Assembly: GCF_048403405.1 (NCBI RefSeq)
Contig: NZ_CP183129.1
Source: Escherichia coli
GTDB taxonomy: Bacteria; Pseudomonadota; Gammaproteobacteria; Enterobacterales; Enterobacteriaceae
Direction: 5' to 3' (one strand)
DNA: 64,000 nucleotides
The stretch's first letter is position 1; each line of letters starts with the position of its first letter. The notes below the pieces were generated by a model. The model was not told where the DNA came from. It saw only the letters and a program-made list of their open reading frames with translations, and did not search any database. Positions 3,521-62,820 of the stretch are shown piece after piece. The translations under genes and the position numbers were made by a program.

Positions 3521-6316
<2,796 letters not shown>

Positions 6317-57378: not shown

Positions 57379-57491
57379 GCTGACCTCATTTCCCCTTAAC
57401 GCCGGGGTCGCGGAACTGTTTGCTGAGAACACCGTGCGGTGTCTTGATGGAAAGTAATTTAGAATAACCTAACATGAGAGGCAAGTGTTTT

Positions 57492-57511
57492 TTGTTAGAT
57501 TGATCTAACAA
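57492..57511. promoter_or_regulatory. palindromic operator (GTTAGA-N4-TCTAAC) between dicA and ydfA (early-left promoter region)
   Basis: Seen in sequence: TTGTTAGAT-TG-ATCTAACAA, perfect 9-bp half-sites; same half-site as the operator in the dicA-dicC intergenic region. Confidence 0.65.
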
Positions 57512-57546
57512 AAAGAGTGGGCGCAACTAATCACTTGAAAAGAATG

Positions 57547-57954
57547 TTATTTTATTGATTTATTTTTACGCGCTTTAAGCATTTCTTCGAAGAGTTTGTT
57601 GAAGTTTTCTACTCTTGCGCGCATTTCAGACAGCAAGGCTTCCTGCTCGGAAGATGGAAGAGCATCGAATAATTCGATCAATTCTTTGTGGTTGGGAGTT
57701 AGCTCTGTTTCCACATGAAGTTCTTGTGCAGGCACTGGTGCCTTGTCTTCGTCACCAAACATTAGCCATGTAGGTGAGCACTTCAGAGCATCCGCTAAAG
57801 CAAACAATCGTTTTCCGACTGGCTGGGTTTCGTCTCTTTCCCATTGTGAAATTGTGACGTGAGCAACTCCAGCGAGGCGCGCAGCTTCTCGTTGTGTTAA
57901 GCGTAATTCTTTTCGTCGCGCCAGAACTCGCTGGCCTAGGGTTCTTGTATCCAT
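57547..57954 (-). CDS. dicA: DicA-like HTH_XRE immunity repressor (cI functional analogue)
   Basis: 135-aa protein with XRE-type HTH (LRLTQREAARLAGVAHVTISQWERDE); similar to, but clearly diverged from, my remembered K-12 DicA; divergent from the Cro-like gene. Confidence 0.85.
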   Translation of the reverse strand: MDTRTLGQRVLARRKELRLTQREAARLAGVAHVTISQWERDETQPVGKRLFALADALKCSPTWLMFGDEDKAPVPAQELHVETELTPNHKELIELFDALPSSEQEALLSEMRARVENFNKLFEEMLKARKNKSIK

Positions 57955-57976
57955 AGTTAGGTAATTCTAATTTTTC

Positions 57977-58020
57977 TTGACTTAGGTATCCCGCGCACAA
58001 TAATGTTAGAAAAGTCTAAC
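57977..58020 (+). promoter_or_regulatory. dicC-type promoter with overlapping palindromic operator
   Basis: TTGACT (57977..57982), about 18-bp spacer, TAATGT (58001..58006), overlapped by the palindrome GTTAGA-AAAG-TCTAAC (58005..58020); GGGGG RBS before the dicC-like start. Confidence 0.6.
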
Positions 58021-58031
58021 AAGAGGGGGCT

Positions 58032-58262
58032 TTGATGCTTAAAGTTGACGCAATTACTTTTTTTGGCAGCAAAACAAAGCTTGCCAATGCCGCAGGAGTG
58101 AGACTGGCAAGTGTTGCTGCTTGGGGGATACTGGTTCCTGAAGGTCGCGCGATGCGTCTACAGGAGGCATCTGGCGGGGAGCTTCAGTATGATCCCAAAG
58201 TTTATGACGAATATCGTAAGACGAAGCGGGCGGGGCGGTTGAACAATGAAAATCACTCCTGA
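58032..58262 (+). CDS. dicC: DicC-like Cro-type repressor
   Basis: 76-aa protein; its C-terminal half (EGRAMRLQEASGGELQYDPKVYDEYRKTKRAGRLNNENHS) matches my memory of DicC. Confidence 0.85.
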   Translation: MMLKVDAITFFGSKTKLANAAGVRLASVAAWGILVPEGRAMRLQEASGGELQYDPKVYDEYRKTKRAGRLNNENHS

Positions 58263-58767
58263 ACAGGCTCGTGAGGCTCTGGATGCCTGGATATGTCGAC
58301 CAGGAATGACACAGGAGCAGGCGACGATATTAATCACTGAAGCATTCTGGGCTTTGAAAGAGCGCCCGAACATCGATGTTCAGCGTGTCACATATGAAGG
58401 TGGCGCGGTTGATCAGCGAGCGCTTAGCGTTAATCGAGTGAAGATATTCGAACGCTGGAAGGCTATCGACACCAGGGATAAGCGTGAAAAGTTCACAGCG
58501 CTAGTGCCTGCAATTATGGAGGCTATCCGGATTAGTGATTTCAGGTTGTATCGTGAGATCAGTGATGGAAAAAGTATTACGTACATGATCGCCGGGTTAA
58601 ATAAAGAATATGGCGATGTGGTGGAATCCGGACTGCTTTTTGCAGATCCTGCCGTTGTAGATCGTGAAACTGACGAACTTATAGAAAAAGCAATTGCTTT
58701 CAAGCTTGCGTATCGACAGCAATACCAACAAAAAGCTGGATGGAATTATGAGTCTTCTTTTTGCTGA
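58246..58767 (+). CDS. hypothetical protein in the cII-equivalent position (possibly YdaT-like)
   Basis: 173-aa ORF overlapping the dicC-like 3' end by 17 nt; the YdaT/cII-analogue assignment is by position only. Confidence 0.4.
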   Translation: MKITPEQAREALDAWICRPGMTQEQATILITEAFWALKERPNIDVQRVTYEGGAVDQRALSVNRVKIFERWKAIDTRDKREKFTALVPAIMEAIRISDFRLYREISDGKSITYMIAGLNKEYGDVVESGLLFADPAVVDRETDELIEKAIAFKLAYRQQYQQKAGWNYESSFC

Positions 58768-59713
58768 ACGCCCACTGGTTATAAACACGCAGCTGGCAAT
58801 GAAAATCGGCTTAAACGAAGCCATTGTTTTGCAACAACTGCACTACTGGTTGAGAGATACCAACTCCGGTATGGAATGTGATGGTGTTCGCTGGATTTAT
58901 AACACAACGGAACAATGGCTGGAACAGTTCCCATTCTGGTCAGAGTCAACGTTAAAGCGCGCGTTTGCAAGTCTGAAAACGCTGGGGCTTTTGCGTTGTG
59001 AAAAGCTCAATAAATCAAAGCGCGATATGACCAATTTCTACACGATCAACTATGGGAGCGAGCTTTTAGATGGTGGCAAATTGAACGAATCCATCGGTTC
59101 AAAATGCGCCGCTCCATCAGGTCAAAATGACACGATGGAAGAGGTCAAAATGAAACGCTCCATTGGTTCAAAACGACCCAATGTCATCGGGTCAAAATGG
59201 CCTGATGATCTTACAGAGAATACAACAGAGATTACTACAGAGAATAAAAACACTTTTCGTCCGGAAGCTTCGCAACCGGACCCGCAGACGACTGAACAGG
59301 ATTTTTTAACCCGGAACCCCGACGCGGTTGTGTTTAGTGTGAAAAAACGCCAGTGGGGTAGCAGGGAGGATTTGGCGTGTGCGCAGTGGATTTGGGGGCG
59401 GATCGTGAACCTTTACGAACAGGCTGCCAGCGACGATGGAGAGATCATGCGACCAAAAGAGCCTAACTGGACAGCCTGGGCCAATGACGTGCGCACAATG
59501 CGGATGCTGGATGGCAGAAGCCACAGACAAATTTGCGAAATGTTTGGTCGGGTACAGCGGGATCCATTCTGGGTAAAAAACATCATGAGCCCGTCAAAAC
59601 TCCGCGAAAAATGGGACGAACTGGTCATCCGCCTGGGACGTTCACCTGTACAGCGTTGTGTTAATCATATTTCTGAACCGGATACAGAAATTCCGCCTGG
59701 TTTCAGGGGATAA
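58748..59713 (+). CDS. phage replication initiator / replisome organiser (lambda O-like)
   Basis: N-terminal wHTH-like segment (LAMKIGLNEAIVLQQLHYWL) typical of phage replisome-organiser N-domains; the gene contains an iteron array followed by an AT-rich tract; the protein has the corresponding IGSK peptide repeats. Start codon uncertain (58694 or 58748). Confidence 0.7.
   Translation: MSLLFAERPLVINTQLAMKIGLNEAIVLQQLHYWLRDTNSGMECDGVRWIYNTTEQWLEQFPFWSESTLKRAFASLKTLGLLRCEKLNKSKRDMTNFYTINYGSELLDGGKLNESIGSKCAAPSGQNDTMEEVKMKRSIGSKRPNVIGSKWPDDLTENTTEITTENKNTFRPEASQPDPQTTEQDFLTRNPDAVVFSVKKRQWGSREDLACAQWIWGRIVNLYEQAASDDGEIMRPKEPNWTAWANDVRTMRMLDGRSHRQICEMFGRVQRDPFWVKNIMSPSKLREKWDELVIRLGRSPVQRCVNHISEPDTEIPPGFRG
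59093..59200. repeat. origin-like iteron array inside the O-like gene
   Basis: Five direct repeats of (A/T)TCNGGT(T)CAAAA(T/C)G spaced 21-25 bp apart (about 59096, 59120, 59144, 59165, 59190), followed by an AT-rich stretch (about 59200..59260). Confidence 0.65.
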
Positions 59714-59753
59714 GTGTTGATTTCAGGTCATGAGATAATTTTAAGGGGGACTT

Positions 59754-60155
59754 GTGGCAAAAGTTTTTACACAAGAAGAGCGGGAAAAAATTAAAGGGCA
59801 GGTTGTTGAACTCGTACGCCGGAGTGGGCGTGAGACGTTACGGCAACTGGAAGTCAAGACAGGTGCGACAAGATATCTGATGAGCGTTCTCGCAAGAGAG
59901 CTGGTTGCCAGCGGCGATGTATACAACTCTGGTTACGGGTTATTCCCGTCTGAACAGGCGCGTAAGGACTGGCAAAATGCCCGTAAAAAGCTCTCAAGGG
60001 CAAAGCTGAAGAAACCATCTGCGGTTGATCCGGACCTTATCTGGTCATTACCTGACGGAGAAATACGTCGCTACGACAGGCGTCAGAACATAATCTGCCG
60101 CGAGTGCCGGAAGAGTGAAGTTATGCAGCGCATACTGGCATTTTATCAGGGATAA
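59754..60155 (+). CDS. hypothetical prophage protein
   Basis: 133-aa ORF with GTG start and strong AAGGGGGA RBS; basic, contains a CxxC pair (CRECRK); function unknown. Confidence 0.55.
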   Translation: MAKVFTQEEREKIKGQVVELVRRSGRETLRQLEVKTGATRYLMSVLARELVASGDVYNSGYGLFPSEQARKDWQNARKKLSRAKLKKPSAVDPDLIWSLPDGEIRRYDRRQNIICRECRKSEVMQRILAFYQG

Positions 60156-60688
60156 TGTTAGGTATTTTAGACGTTACTAGATTAAAAAGCATTAGTTCAG
60201 GAGTGAATTGACATTCTCATTTTTCATGGCACAGGGTAGATCTGGCGTGGTTGTCCGCTTTGTGCCAACAGCGGACGTTACTAACGAAACTGTGAGTTAA
60301 AAACGGGAGCTGGTCACCTCCATCCCGCGAAATGGAATTCAAAAATGCCCTCATGTACGGTACTTCTAGTCTGATGTGAGCATTTTCGTGGATTTTTTCG
60401 AGCCACTCCAACGAATGATTACATTCAGTTTCGGGCACTAAAACGTCATAAATCCGCAAGTTGAGGAGTAGCGATCAGCCAATTGGTTAAAAAACAGCTT
60501 TAATTCCCTTTTTCAAGCAGGCTCCTTGTCGCACGTCTGGTGCATCCAATTCATTTCAGTTACCCTGATGCCATACTGGCACGGACTAGCTCTCTTAATT
60601 GGCGCTGGTTTGTTAACCTTGTCCGCTGTCGGGTCTTTGTAAGTTGTAATTCCTAAACTAGCATAATTTTATTATAAGGCCTCTTACT

Positions 60689-61714
60689 ATGCACATTTTA
60701 TCTGTTTCAAAAAAGGAAGTTGGAAGAGCTGGGGATAGATTAGTTTCTCAGTTTGGTACAGGTGAAAAATATAAAGAGGAAGATGTACAAATTCTTCATG
60801 AGTGGAGGATGTTGCATTTATATCCTTTAAGTAAAATACAATTTTATATGGAAAGAGAGGCTATTTCCTTAAACAAAAATGCGTTACTATCCTCTAGAAT
60901 TAAGAGGATGCCTTCCATTGTTACTAAGCTTTCTAGATTTCCTGATATGAAGTTAAATAAGATGCAGGATCTTGGTGGGTGCCGGGCTATTTTAAATAAT
61001 CTGGATCAAGTGTATGATTTAGTTAATAAAATAAAATCATCTAAATTCTCACATGAACTAGTTAGAATGGATGATTACATGATAGACGTGAAAGATTCTG
61101 GTTATAGAAGCTTTCATATGGTCTATTCATTCCAAAATAAAAAATTTCCATCTTTAAATGGGTTGCGCATTGAAATGCAAATAAGAACAGCTATTCAACA
61201 TAGCTGGGCTACAGCAGTTGAAATGGTTGGTTTGTTTCGAAAGGAATCATTGAAATCTGGTTTTGGTGATGCAAGATGGCTTAGGTTTTTTGAATTGGTA
61301 TCAGAGCTTTTTTATAAACTTGAGTATGAAAAAGAACCATCTGGGAGTTATATAAAAATATCAGAAGAATTAAGTTATTTATCCGTCGAGTTGAATGTTT
61401 TCGATATATTAGCTGCTTACAATGCCGTAGTTAGCCATATTGAGGGTAGCAAAAAATATGATAAAGGACTTTGCATAATTGTTGTTGATACCATAAAGCG
61501 GAATATAAATATAAAGAGCTTCGAAAATCACAATCATGCGAAGGCGGCAGAAGCTTATGTCGAGTCTGAAAAATACTGCGCGGAAAATAAAGGCTGTGAA
61601 GTGGCTATGGTTTCTGTTAGTTCAATTAGTGAATTAAAAAATGCATATCCTGCTTACTTTTTAGATACGAAAACTTTTTTAAATTATCTCAGTAGGTATG
61701 TTTTTATAAAATAA
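60689..61714 (+). CDS. RelA/SpoT-domain nucleotide pyrophosphokinase (toxSAS-like; candidate fused CapRel-type toxin-antitoxin defence protein)
   Basis: 341-aa protein with the four synthetase motifs in order: RIKRMPSIVTK, DLGGCRAIL, YRSFHMVY, EMQIRTAIQHSWATAVE. No HD hydrolase, TGS or ACT domains; about 130 C-terminal residues unassigned. The gene is markedly AT-rich compared with its flanks. Confidence 0.8.
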   Translation: MHILSVSKKEVGRAGDRLVSQFGTGEKYKEEDVQILHEWRMLHLYPLSKIQFYMEREAISLNKNALLSSRIKRMPSIVTKLSRFPDMKLNKMQDLGGCRAILNNLDQVYDLVNKIKSSKFSHELVRMDDYMIDVKDSGYRSFHMVYSFQNKKFPSLNGLRIEMQIRTAIQHSWATAVEMVGLFRKESLKSGFGDARWLRFFELVSELFYKLEYEKEPSGSYIKISEELSYLSVELNVFDILAAYNAVVSHIEGSKKYDKGLCIIVVDTIKRNINIKSFENHNHAKAAEAYVESEKYCAENKGCEVAMVSVSSISELKNAYPAYFLDTKTFLNYLSRYVFIK

Positions 61715-62448
61715 AAAATGTTATCTGGAGTGGTCTGAATTCTACTAACTTAGTTTTTTCAGACCGCTTCTGACCACAATGGCCTGTGAGGTTCTGCTGC
61801 TAGTCAACATAAAATAACAAAGCCGGCAGGTGGTGGTTGTTGTAAAGTTATTCAATGACATTCATGGAGGCTTAAGCGAATTATTTGTCCCTGGTCGGTA
61901 TGGTGGCAACAGCTTGTTGCGAGAATTTGGCTAATTTGGACTGACTTCCGCTCCTTGCTCAAAGCGGACTAGAAGGTTAGCTTGTGTCGGACTTTGCGTA
62001 TTAAAAGAAGTGCTGGTGGTGACTAGTGGTTGAGCCCCATTTCCACAGAAAAAATCAGAGAAACTATACCCAATAGTTGTATTGAATCACTGACGAGACA
62101 GCCTCATATTCATCAGGACTGGTGTACGTCCAATACAGGAGGTTGTGGTGCTGGTTCTCAAATGTGCGCTGGCTATTACGGCTGTAATGGCGATTTATTG
62201 TCTTGCTATTGTTCTTATGGATCGCCTTTCTGACTGATTTCATATTGGCGAGGTAAAGGTAGTTAAGTAGAATGGCTGCGGGTGCTTGAGGCTATCTGCC
62301 TCGGGCATGAACACCAAAGGCAGATAGAGAAAAGCCCCAGTTAACATTACGCGTCCTGCAAGACGCTTAACATTAATCTGAGGCCAATTTCATGCTAGAC
62401 ACATGTAGGTTAGCCTCTTACGTGCCGGAAGGCAAGGAGAAGCAGGCT

Positions 62449-62604
62449 ATGAAGCAGCAAAAGGCGATGTTAATCGCCCTGATCGTCATCTGTTTAACCG
62501 TCATAGTGACGGCACTGGTAACGAGGAAAGACCTCTGCGAGGTACGAATCCGAACCGGCCAGACGGAGGTCGCTGTCTTCACAGCTTACGAACCTGAGGA
62601 GTAA
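62449..62604 (+). CDS. hokD: Hok/Gef-family membrane toxin
   Basis: 51-aa protein MKQQKAMLIALIVICLTVIVTALVTRKDLCEVRIRTGQTEVAVFTAYEPEE, matching my memory of HokD; AAGGAGA RBS; upstream fold-back elements typical of hok mRNAs. No relB/relE ORFs are present upstream. Confidence 0.9.
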   Translation: MKQQKAMLIALIVICLTVIVTALVTRKDLCEVRIRTGQTEVAVFTAYEPEE

Positions 62605-62820
62605 GAGACCCGGCGAGGGAGAAATCCCTCGCCACCTCTGATGTGGCAGGCATCCTCAACGCACCCGCACTTAACCCGCTTCGGCGGGTTTTTGTTTTTA
62701 TTTTCAACGCGTTTGAAGTTCTGGACGGTGCCGGAATAGAATCAAAAATACTTAAGTAGCGCGCAGGGATAAGAGGGATGGTCCCTTAAAGGGGAGAGCT
62801 AATTATCCGGAAGAATTCTG

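Follow-up and report, generated by a model that had tools for sequence, protein, structure and literature searches.

A Qin-like lambdoid prophage integrated beside rspB very probably has its vegetative replication origin at positions 59069–59258 of the window (the whole 64-kb stretch of Escherichia coli DNA analysed here), inside its own initiator gene. This degree of confidence covers three steps taken jointly: after derepression, rightward transcription from a pR-like promoter (57977–58004) would yield the O-like protein; dimers of its winged-helix N-domain would bind five or six 23-bp iterons, giving an O-some-like complex; and the adjoining A-rich tract (59208–59258) would then be opened. 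In a fourth step, which is much less certain than the first three and is based on the statistics of neighbouring genes and on similarity over 21 residues, the initiator itself may bring in the host DnaB–DnaC, likeliest via its lambda-O-type C-terminal domain and a DnaT-like peptide, SEPDTEIPPGFRG (see below).

Iterons and A-rich tract within the initiator gene

The features recognised in the initiator gene are the following.

58748–59713, + strand: O-like replication initiator, 321 aa (PHROG 391 'replication initiation O-like', E 1.9e-92)
58748–59056, + strand: N-terminal winged-helix domain, aa 1–103, the putative iteron binder (AlphaFold2 model, pLDDT 85.9)
59069–59091, + strand: iteron slot 0, degenerate, GATGGTGGCAAATTGAACGAATC, in register with the array
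59092–59114, + strand: iteron 1, CATCGGTTCAAAATGCGCCGCTC
59115–59137, + strand: iteron 2, CATCAGGTCAAAATGACACGATG, in a different frame, translated PSGQNDTM
59138–59160, + strand: iteron 3, GAAGAGGTCAAAATGAAACGCTC, in the third frame, translated EEVKMKR
59161–59183, + strand: iteron 4, CATTGGTTCAAAACGACCCAATG
59185–59207, + strand: iteron 5, CATCGGGTCAAAATGGCCTGATG, adjoining the A-rich tract; the lambda O alignment begins here
59186–59629, + strand: aa 147–294, homologous to lambda O over its C-terminal half (BLASTP 1e-27, 34% identity over 148 aa; same coordinates by tblastn)
59208–59258, + strand: A-rich low-stability tract of three 12-nt TACAGAGAATAC-like units (A=24, T=12), putative DNA unwinding element
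59648–59710, + strand: C-terminal tail, VQRCVNHISEPDTEIPPGFRG, which matches DnaT of the host at its extreme C-terminus (phmmer against PDB)

The array (59069–59207) has six 23-bp slots, of which five are good iterons and one is degenerate. The five direct repeats with a GGT(T)CAAAA(T/C)G core that the earlier note had described are present where it placed them, being recovered both by a repeat search, as a single family of five copies with start-to-start distances of 23, 23, 23, and 24, and by the tandem-repeat analysis which that note had proposed as a check (TRF: period 23, 3.2 copies, score 71, at 59090–59163). The cores read GGTTCAAAATG at 59096, GGTCAAAATG at 59120, 59143, and 59190, and GGTTCAAAACG at 59165. 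The motif GGTYCAAAAYG was counted twice versus 0.12 expected, and GGTCAAAATG with at most one mismatch has eight matches in the 64 kb, four of them inside 103 bp; a chance origin of the iteron repeats is excluded. Their spacing, given earlier as about two helical turns, is indeed regular, but 23 bp corresponds to 2.2 turns and not exactly to two. Each unit is an imperfect palindrome over its 23 bp, with 16 self-complementary positions in iterons 2, 4, and 5 and weaker symmetry in iterons 1 (12/23) and 3 (10/23), and the consensus derived from 18 slots of three lineages, CATCAGGTCAAAATGACCCGATG, is a near-palindrome. Relatives carry a good iteron in place of the degenerate slot 0 (GAAGAGGTCAAAGTG in L072, GATGAGGTCAAAGTG in L084), and in many of them iteron 1 reads CATCAGGTCAAAATG, which is nearer to the consensus and costs a G-to-R residue change. 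DnaA boxes are absent within 4 kb of the origin, and their count in the 64-kb window is that expected by chance. A 43-aa antisense ORF (59122–59253) had no support and was set aside.

The AT-rich stretch said to follow the repeats is also real. This A-rich tract (about 59207–59258, GC 0.29) is the least stable 50-mer of the O-like gene and belongs to the 0.9% least stable of the whole 64 kb, with a nearest-neighbour dG (59207–59257) of -57.7 kcal/mol versus a window mean of -70.8 (sd 4.9). TRF detects in it a period of 12 (2.8 copies, 59213–59246), the number of 12-nt units differs between relatives, and no synonymous changes were seen within it among close relatives. A short palindrome stands to the right of the AT-rich tract in ori-lambda; here, as a point of difference, a search to the right of the tract, near 59259–59330, gave no inverted repeats of at least 10 nt. 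Array and tract together occupy the linker-coding part of the gene, between the winged-helix N-domain and the lambda-O-type C-terminal domain. Comparison with lambdoid ori sequences, another check that had been suggested, puts the array at the same gene position as ori-lambda, since the lambda O alignment begins at the last iteron, and gives a GC of 0.27 for the lambda A-rich tract, close to the value found here.

The match of the protein to PHROG 391 is full-length (residues 17–321 against profile positions 11–298 of 298). In most genomes PGAP annotates the gene as 'hypothetical protein'; a few annotations read 'phage replication protein O', and some phage records label its close relatives as DnaT. 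The description 'O-like' holds for the C-terminal half only: Phage_rep_O (PF04492), which lambda O matches at 5.7e-36, is not matched by this protein, and no P gene follows it, in both of which it differs from lambda. For the N-domain we found no family in Pfam or NCBIfam and no Pfam match even at E 1, and the precomputed Pfam fields of 120 homologues were empty save for one partial match (PF13973/DUF4222). Searched against PDB, the N-domain model scored best with 4pql (E 1.6e-3, TM 0.54), followed by 5kbj (E 1.6e-2), both of them iteron-binding N-domains of RepA_N plasmid initiators, a DNA complex included; the match is modest, and generic winged-helix regulators score about equally.

Around the initiator gene, the following elements were annotated.

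57547–57954, - strand: DicA-like repressor (NCBIfam DicA, E 2.7e-67)
57977–58004, + strand: pR-like promoter, TTGACT-16-AATAAT, whose transcript would traverse the origin
58032–58262, + strand: DicC/Cro-like regulator (NCBIfam DicC, E 1.9e-49; Pfam P22_Cro)
58246–58767, + strand: YdaT/CII-like gene, overlapping the start of O (Pfam YdaT_toxin, E 4e-6; PHROG 163 'CII-like', E 8.7e-41)
59754–60155, + strand: DUF977/Ren-like gene, 40 bp past O, the loader slot being empty (Pfam DUF977, E 3.8e-29; PHROG 142 'Ren-like', E 6.5e-45)

The pR-like promoter is the sole sigma-70-like match within 57400–60700, and we infer by analogy with lambda that it would have a role in origin activation. The statement in the earlier note that K-12 Qin is devoid of a replication module proved right: blastn of 57500–62700 against the K-12 Qin region matches dicC/ydfX and hokD only, the O-like gene being entirely absent there. 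Among 5426 complete E. coli genomes, 1382 contain the module (region covered to at least 80%). A prophage identical to that of the window is found in genome A0 34/86, where it has integrase, Q, lysis, terminase, portal, capsid, and tail genes and looks complete. Absence of the repeats from homologues, which had been named as an observation that would speak against an origin, is not what we see, because phages with an O at least 98% identical (PhiR42_1, mEp460_ev081, and HannyBb) carry the same array, with a difference of 1 nt in PhiR42_1. These phages and the gene content of the A0 34/86 prophage make it likely that the module works.

Helicase loading and the DnaT-like tail

No DnaC, DnaB, or P homologue was detected by tblastn (1e-4) anywhere in the 64 kb. 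With genes for P, DnaC, and DnaB all missing from the module, the host DnaB–DnaC would have to be recruited by the initiator. Of 84 related loci, 30 have a DnaC-like (YdaV-type) gene placed directly after O and before the DUF977 gene, where the window has only the 40-bp gap. One explanation for the empty slot is that the origin is intact and the module defective, its helicase-loader gene having been lost, so that what we describe would be a relic unable to fire unaided. We consider this improbable. Most of the loci (54 of the 84) are loader-less, and so is PhiR42_1, whose deposited record is that of a phage and gives a propagation host; our literature search found no paper on this phage. Modules with O only are a recognised lambdoid class, amounting to 34 of 314 Enterobacterales lambdoid phages (PMC12315714). 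The O gene of the window is moreover full length, with flanking domains under strong purifying selection (dN/dS about 0.01–0.04), and the identical prophage of A0 34/86 looks complete, as mentioned above. A loader hidden in the DUF977 product was rejected, this protein being Ren-like by PHROG and occurring both with and without the DnaC-like gene.

If the initiator does recruit the host helicase itself, as we favour, its C-terminal tail would be a candidate point of contact. Against PDB, phmmer aligns this tail with the DnaT chains 2ru8, 6aep, and 9zbt, end-to-end at the C-terminus. The protein as a whole is not a DnaT, as it scores 16.3 bits with the NCBIfam DnaT model versus a cut-off of 201, and the last 20 residues alone align. 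The same tail closes at least nine other phage initiator families and is absent from lambda O and Stx-phage O, both of which are paired with P. Among 62 tail-bearing initiators with enough flanking sequence, the next gene is DnaC-like in 39, a non-loader in 23, and lambda-P-like in none; these tail counts are lower bounds, because the IPPGFRG-stop pattern employed overlooks IPAGFRG and VPAGFRS variants. That the tail is specific to loader-less modules is ruled out by the 39 DnaC-like neighbours and by YdaU of the K-12 Rac prophage, which has the tail too (its C-terminal end is ...VNTVSLPDSAIPPGFRG). In the literature we found no stated role for the extreme C-terminal tail of DnaT. The DnaT C-terminal domain docks on PriA (PMC13377028), so the partner of the tail could be PriA rather than DnaC.

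Constraint on the array and co-variation with the N-domain

In an NG86 comparison with L031, dS is 0.667 in the N-domain (dN 0.008) and 0.568 in the C-terminal domain (dN 0.024), and only 0.057 in the array plus A-rich tract, where dN is 0.042. A similar profile was obtained with L072 (69% aa identity), with pS values of 0.82 for the N-domain, 0.13 for array plus tract, and 0.84 for the C-terminal domain and an array pN of 0.14, and with the Klebsiella phage L084 (pS 0.97 for the N-domain, 0.14 for the array). In these last two comparisons, synonymous divergence in the array is about 6-fold below that of the flanks, and pN is about equal to pS. The cores of iterons 1 to 5 read in frames 1, 0, 2, 1, and 1, the iterons being translated in different frames since a 23-bp unit does not divide into whole codons; of the matching IGSK repeats claimed for the protein, three do appear, as (S/V)IGSK, but the other two iterons read PSGQN and EEVKM in other frames. 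With the motif read in three frames, and with synonymous divergence falling while pN remains similar to pS, it is the DNA of the array and not the protein that is conserved, and the divergence values show this DNA to be constrained independently of the reading frame.

Low divergence could also come about if the segment were a patch of homology at a module boundary, the linker promoting recombination between N- and C-terminal modules and its similarity reflecting recent exchange. Such a patch would account for the confinement of the low synonymous divergence to the array segment and for the mosaic junction between N- and C-domains just past the A-rich tract, which is evident when L084 and L086 are compared with the window: L084 shares N-domain, iterons, and A-rich tract with the window, its C-terminal domain being unrelated, and L086 has an unrelated HTH_36 N-domain, the same C-terminal domain, and different iterons (CCGTCAAAATCTGACG). 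However, recent exchange would cut pN as well, and the observed pN equals or exceeds that of the flanks. The segment is internally built of in-phase 23-bp palindromes, its iteron variants drift toward the consensus, and in L085, whose N-domain is 53% identical, both half-sites have changed symmetrically (GGGCAAAATGCCC). The cassette is kept even in Staphylococcus phage 42E, with an N-domain 46% identical and three GGACAAAATG iterons spaced 22–23 bp apart in the same place, the first of them agreeing with the E. coli consensus in 19 of its 23 positions, and recent exchange between this phage and E. coli is implausible. Taken together, we judge this explanation very improbable.

Slightly less probable still is that the repeats bind another protein, such as a regulator or an exclusion or incompatibility factor, or act as decoys. 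Exclusion phenotypes caused by cloned lambda ori regions are known (PMC3349717), but in four lineages that differ in their immunity genes and C-terminal domain the iteron sequence follows the N-domain encoded around it, and a different binder would leave both the low-stability tract and the lambda-like position unexplained. Least credible of all is that the repeats serve the protein, as a repetitive low-complexity linker (IGSK/TENT repeats) with no cis function, since the hydrophilic repetitive linker that the region does encode, (S/V)IGSK in three iterons, comes from one DNA motif translated in all three frames, with the synonymous constraint given above and with residue changes tolerated where the DNA consensus is restored.

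Dyad symmetry, co-variation with the N-domain, and the fold of this domain lead us to infer that N-domain dimers would sit on the iterons. The proposal that a lambda-type origin sits within the gene of its own initiator is supported, at the level of sequence, by the linker position, the frame-independent constraint on the DNA, and the co-variation with the N-domain, and the origin is in these terms a further case of a kind already known.

Comparison with known systems and implications

With ori-lambda this origin shares imperfect-palindrome direct repeats with a CAAAA centre, 20–24 bp apart, some 50 bp of A-rich DNA after them, and a mid-gene, linker-coding location downstream of pR, cro, and cII. 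Its iterons differ, being 23 bp long versus 19 bp in lambda and having other half-sites, and iteron number is variable in any case, with four in lambda and six in Stx phages (PMC7466680). The O-only modules, such as that of phage LLS, have likewise a single O-homologue gene and no helicase or loader, although their description gives neither iterons nor a mechanism and presents O-only lambdoid replication as unstudied and not yet understood (PMC12315714). In our literature search no experimental report of initiator binding, unwinding, or origin activity was found for this O type.

The staphylococcal RepA_N plasmid initiators (PDB 4pql, 4pt7, and 5kbj), which provide the best fold matches to the N-domain and include a Rep–DNA complex, resemble it at the level of fold only (15–17% identity, TM about 0.5) and are plasmid proteins with another C-terminal domain. 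In RepA_N initiators too, the iterons lie within the rep coding sequence. The Rep of lactococcal phage TP901-1, annotated 'replication protein, experimental', has the same plan of short direct repeats, which form its origin, and an AT-rich stretch mid-gene; homology between the two proteins was not detected (BLASTP E 0.79). The combination of an O-like or initiator N-domain with the DnaT C-terminal motif is found in DopC of Cellvibrionales/Oceanospirillales (PMC5509034) and in Rac YdaU. The DopC locus differs in having no iterons, in not being an origin, and in pairing with a P-like gene (PMC5509034). In YdaU, the N-domain is of the DUF1376 type, and the next gene encodes the DnaC-like YdaV.

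A wider reading that joins these observations is offered tentatively, and we hold it to be possible rather than likely. O-only lambdoid origins would need no loader from the phage, their initiator acting as a mimic of host DnaT, with the peptide SEPDxxIPPGFRG, common to DnaT and at least nine unrelated phage initiator families, docking DnaC-type loaders, or PriA, and so delivering DnaB–DnaC to the opened A-rich tract. The host dnaT–dnaC operon would mirror, and may derive from, a phage initiator–loader pair, and the N-domain, the GGNCAAAATG iterons, and the ACAGAGA repeats would make up an ancient origin unit of Gram-negative and Gram-positive phages.

Being textbook in kind, the proposed origin adds little beyond the annotation of a gene left as 'hypothetical protein' in most PGAP records. 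Its value is as an entry point to how O-only lambdoid phages, about a tenth of the total (PMC12315714), load their helicase: the cis elements of one such module are now defined to the base pair, two natural variants are available, with and without the DnaC-like gene, and the 13-residue peptide held in common with DnaT may be the recruitment signal.

Prophage context and the initiator gene

The window is found at 100% identity in many E. coli chromosomes (e.g., strain A0 34/86), and the element it carries is a lambdoid prophage adjoining rspB, the same site as K-12 Qin. Its genes begin with integrase, excisionase, exonuclease, ydfD, dicB and a DicA-like repressor, continue through the replication region listed here to a RelA/SpoT-domain gene, hokD, rem and a Q-type antiterminator, and finish with lysis, terminase, portal, capsid and tail genes.

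Features of the replication region (window coordinates)
57547-57954, minus strand: DicA-like repressor
57977-58004, plus strand: pR-like promoter
58032-58262, plus strand: DicC/Cro-like gene
58246-58767, plus strand: YdaT/CII-like gene
58748-59713, plus strand: 321-aa O-like initiator gene (O) containing the repeats
59069-59091: sixth, degenerate repeat unit, a good copy in relatives
59096, 59120, 59143, 59165, 59190: iteron core GGT(T)CAAAA(T/C)G
59754-60155, plus strand: DUF977/Ren-like gene

K-12 Qin does lack a replication module, as the earlier note stated, the initiator gene being wholly missing there; when 57500-62700 was compared by blastn with the K-12 Qin region, only dicC/ydfX and hokD matched. 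The repressor matches the DicA protein model (2.7e-67), yet comparing its DNA with K-12 dicA by blastn gave nothing at E 1e-5, against 87% identity for the dicC region alongside, which suggests a different immunity allele from that of K-12. Roughly where K-12 Qin has relBE, ydfV and flxA, the RelA/SpoT-domain gene (60689-61714, plus strand) encodes a 341-aa protein matching the PADLOC candidate defence family PDC-S33 (E 5e-119).

Profile searches returned no Pfam or NCBIfam family for the full 321-aa initiator; PHROGs family 391 ('replication initiation O-like') matches it at 1.9e-92. In BLASTP, residues 147-294 align to lambda O over its C-terminal half (1e-27, 34% identity), and since this alignment starts exactly at the last iteron, the array sits where the lambda iterons are annotated in their gene. 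Phage_rep_O, the family that lambda O hits at 5.7e-36, gives no match to the N-terminal 110 residues. This N-domain is modelled by AlphaFold2 (65 homologues as input, pLDDT 85.9) as a winged helix, with modest best PDB matches (E 1.6e-3, TM 0.54) to the N-domain of staphylococcal RepA_N plasmid initiators, including a Rep-DNA complex. PGAP names for this widespread gene are inconsistent in RefSeq genomes, mostly 'hypothetical protein' and in a few 'phage replication protein O', and the labels of close relatives in phage records include 'Primosomal protein I'. DnaT itself was rejected as an identity (16 bits with the DnaT model, cut-off 201).

The iteron array, the A-rich tract and constraint on their DNA

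The five repeats that the earlier note had placed within 59093-59260 were confirmed by a repeat search as one five-copy family, with start-to-start distances of 23, 23, 23 and 24, and Tandem Repeats Finder reported period 23 at 59090-59163 (score 71). The exact degenerate core pattern occurs twice against 0.12 expected, and half of the near-matches to GGTCAAAATG across the 64 kb fall within the 103-bp array stretch. Each unit is a 23-bp imperfect palindrome, with 16/23 self-complementary positions in iterons 2, 4 and 5. As 23 is not divisible by 3, one DNA motif is read in all three frames (SIGSK, PSGQN, EEVKM, SIGSK, VIGSK). Thus the 'IGSK repeats' reported in the protein hold for the three iterons read as (S/V)IGSK and fail for the other two, and arise as a side effect of the repetition in the DNA.

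The AT-rich stretch said to follow the repeats is present at 59207-59257 (GC 0.29, with the top strand rich in A). Within the O gene this is the 50-mer of lowest stability (dG -57.7 kcal/mol; window mean -70.8 kcal/mol, sd 4.9), and it ranks among the least stable 0.9% of the whole window. A further array reported by Tandem Repeats Finder, with period 12, spans 59213-59246, and its 12-nt units differ in copy number among close relatives (L036 and L043 carry two extra); the unit at 59212-59247 is ACAGAGAATACA. An ACAGAGA(N)TAC motif is retained in Klebsiella phage ZX1 (L085, ~2940-2985) and Staphylococcus phage 42E (L212, ~2395-2440), and since it persists there in a less AT-rich tract, the 12-nt repeat may be a sequence-specific element and not merely an easily melted stretch.

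Divergence was examined with 80 related loci from IMG/VR and several phage records. Among close relatives, synonymous diversity drops to ~0-0.005 over 59060-59260 and non-synonymous diversity goes up. By the Nei-Gojobori method, comparison with locus L031 yields a dS of 0.667 and a dN of 0.008 for the N-domain; the corresponding values are 0.057 and 0.042 for the array plus A-rich tract and 0.568 and 0.024 for the C-terminal domain. With the 69%-identical L072 class, these three segments have pS values of 0.82, 0.13 and 0.84, with a pN of 0.14 in the array, and with Klebsiella phage vB_VIPKPNMC05 pS reaches 0.97 over the N-domain and 0.14 over the array. Variants of iteron 1 shift toward the consensus CATCAGGTCAAAATG at the price of a Gly-to-Arg substitution. 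As judged from divergence, this is the pattern of a cis-acting DNA element, which led us to reject a protein repeat as its source; a recently exchanged segment was also rejected, as exchange would reduce pN along with pS.

Co-variation with the N-domain and comparison with ori-lambda

Phage vB_VIPKPNMC05 shares with the window initiator the type of N-domain (72% identity), the iteron sequence, in six copies, and the A-rich tract, and its C-terminal domain (Phg_2220_C) is an unrelated one. In ZX1, with an N-domain 53% identical, the iterons have GGGCAAAATGCCC replacing GGTCAAAATGACC, a symmetric change in both half-sites, and the ACAGAGACTAC repeats are retained. SfIV-type phages join an unrelated HTH_36 N-domain to the same C-terminal domain, and have different iterons (CCGTCAAAATCTGACG). 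ORF016 of phage 42E (L212, 1992-2747), with an N-domain 46% identical to that of the window, holds three GGACAAA(A/T)TG iterons, spaced by 22-23 bp, at the corresponding place in the gene, the first of which (CATCGGGACAAAATGGCCCGACG) matches the E. coli consensus at 19/23 positions, and ...TACACAGAGACTAAC... comes after them. In this Gram-positive phage the second gene downstream, past the small ORF040, encodes a DnaB-like helicase. By these comparisons, the iterons move and vary together with the N-domain, and neither the C-terminal domain nor the immunity region follows them, the relation expected of an initiator and its origin.

The lambda-type origin proposed inside the initiator gene is therefore supported by its lambda-like position, the constraint on its DNA and its co-variation with the N-domain, and the repeat region is very probably the replication origin of the prophage. 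The O gene is intact, strong purifying selection acts on its domains on either side of the array, and the prophage in the identical genome (A0 34/86) looks complete; the window copy is likely functional. In phages PhiR42_1, mEp460_ev081 and HannyBb, O is at least 98% identical, and the PhiR42_1 array differs by a single base, upstream of iteron 1. The origin would be of the same kind as ori-lambda, and iteron number likewise varies among lambda (4) and Stx phages (6). However, the DNA-binding domain comes from another family, the site is 23 bp instead of 19 bp, an inverted-repeat search gave no palindrome right of the A-rich tract, the module is without a P gene, and the initiator bears a DnaT-like tail.

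Helicase loading and the DnaT-like tail

Searches of the entire 64 kb by tblastn with E. coli DnaC, DnaB, lambda P and Rac YdaV gave no match, and the gap between O and the Ren-like gene is only 40 bp (59714-59753). In 30 of the 84 loci of this O type the slot is filled by a DnaC-like gene (48% identity to host DnaC), and the other 54, which include PhiR42_1 and the window, have none there. There are thus two natural module variants, O + DnaC-like + DUF977 (e.g., L061, L064 and L066, ~3973-4700) and O + DUF977, a ready-made comparison of what the phage loader contributes. A 2025 survey, in which 34 of 314 lambdoid phages encoded an O homologue alone, calls O-only replication not understood (PMC12315714).

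The last 21 residues of the initiator, VQRCVNHISEPDTEIPPGFRG (59648-59710), match the extreme C-terminus of host DnaT end to end. When IMG/VR was scanned for IPPGFRG plus a stop codon (loci L089-L168), this tail (SEPDxxIPPGFRG-stop) was found to end at least nine phage or prophage initiator families with unrelated N-termini, K-12 Rac YdaU (L211, 3120-3977) among them. The gene that follows, in the 62 cases with enough flank, is DnaC-like in 39, a non-loader in 23 and lambda-P-like in none. The tail is missing from lambda O and an Stx-phage O, both paired with P, and host dnaT and dnaC are adjacent, in the same gene order as the initiator/DnaC-like pairs. A link between an O-like N-domain and the DnaT C-terminal motif had been noted for DopC (PMC5509034). 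Our inference is that the tail serves as a docking signal linked to DnaC-type loading, which in loader-less modules would bring in host DnaB-DnaC; our confidence in this helicase-recruitment step is far below that in the origin. PriA is a rival partner for the tail, since it is where the C-terminal domain of DnaT docks in the preprimosome structure of 2026, in which DnaB/DnaC recruitment is still unexplained (PMC13377028).

The origin itself would be ordinary in kind; what the module adds is a well-defined case in which the unexplained O-only replication of lambdoid phages can be put to the test.
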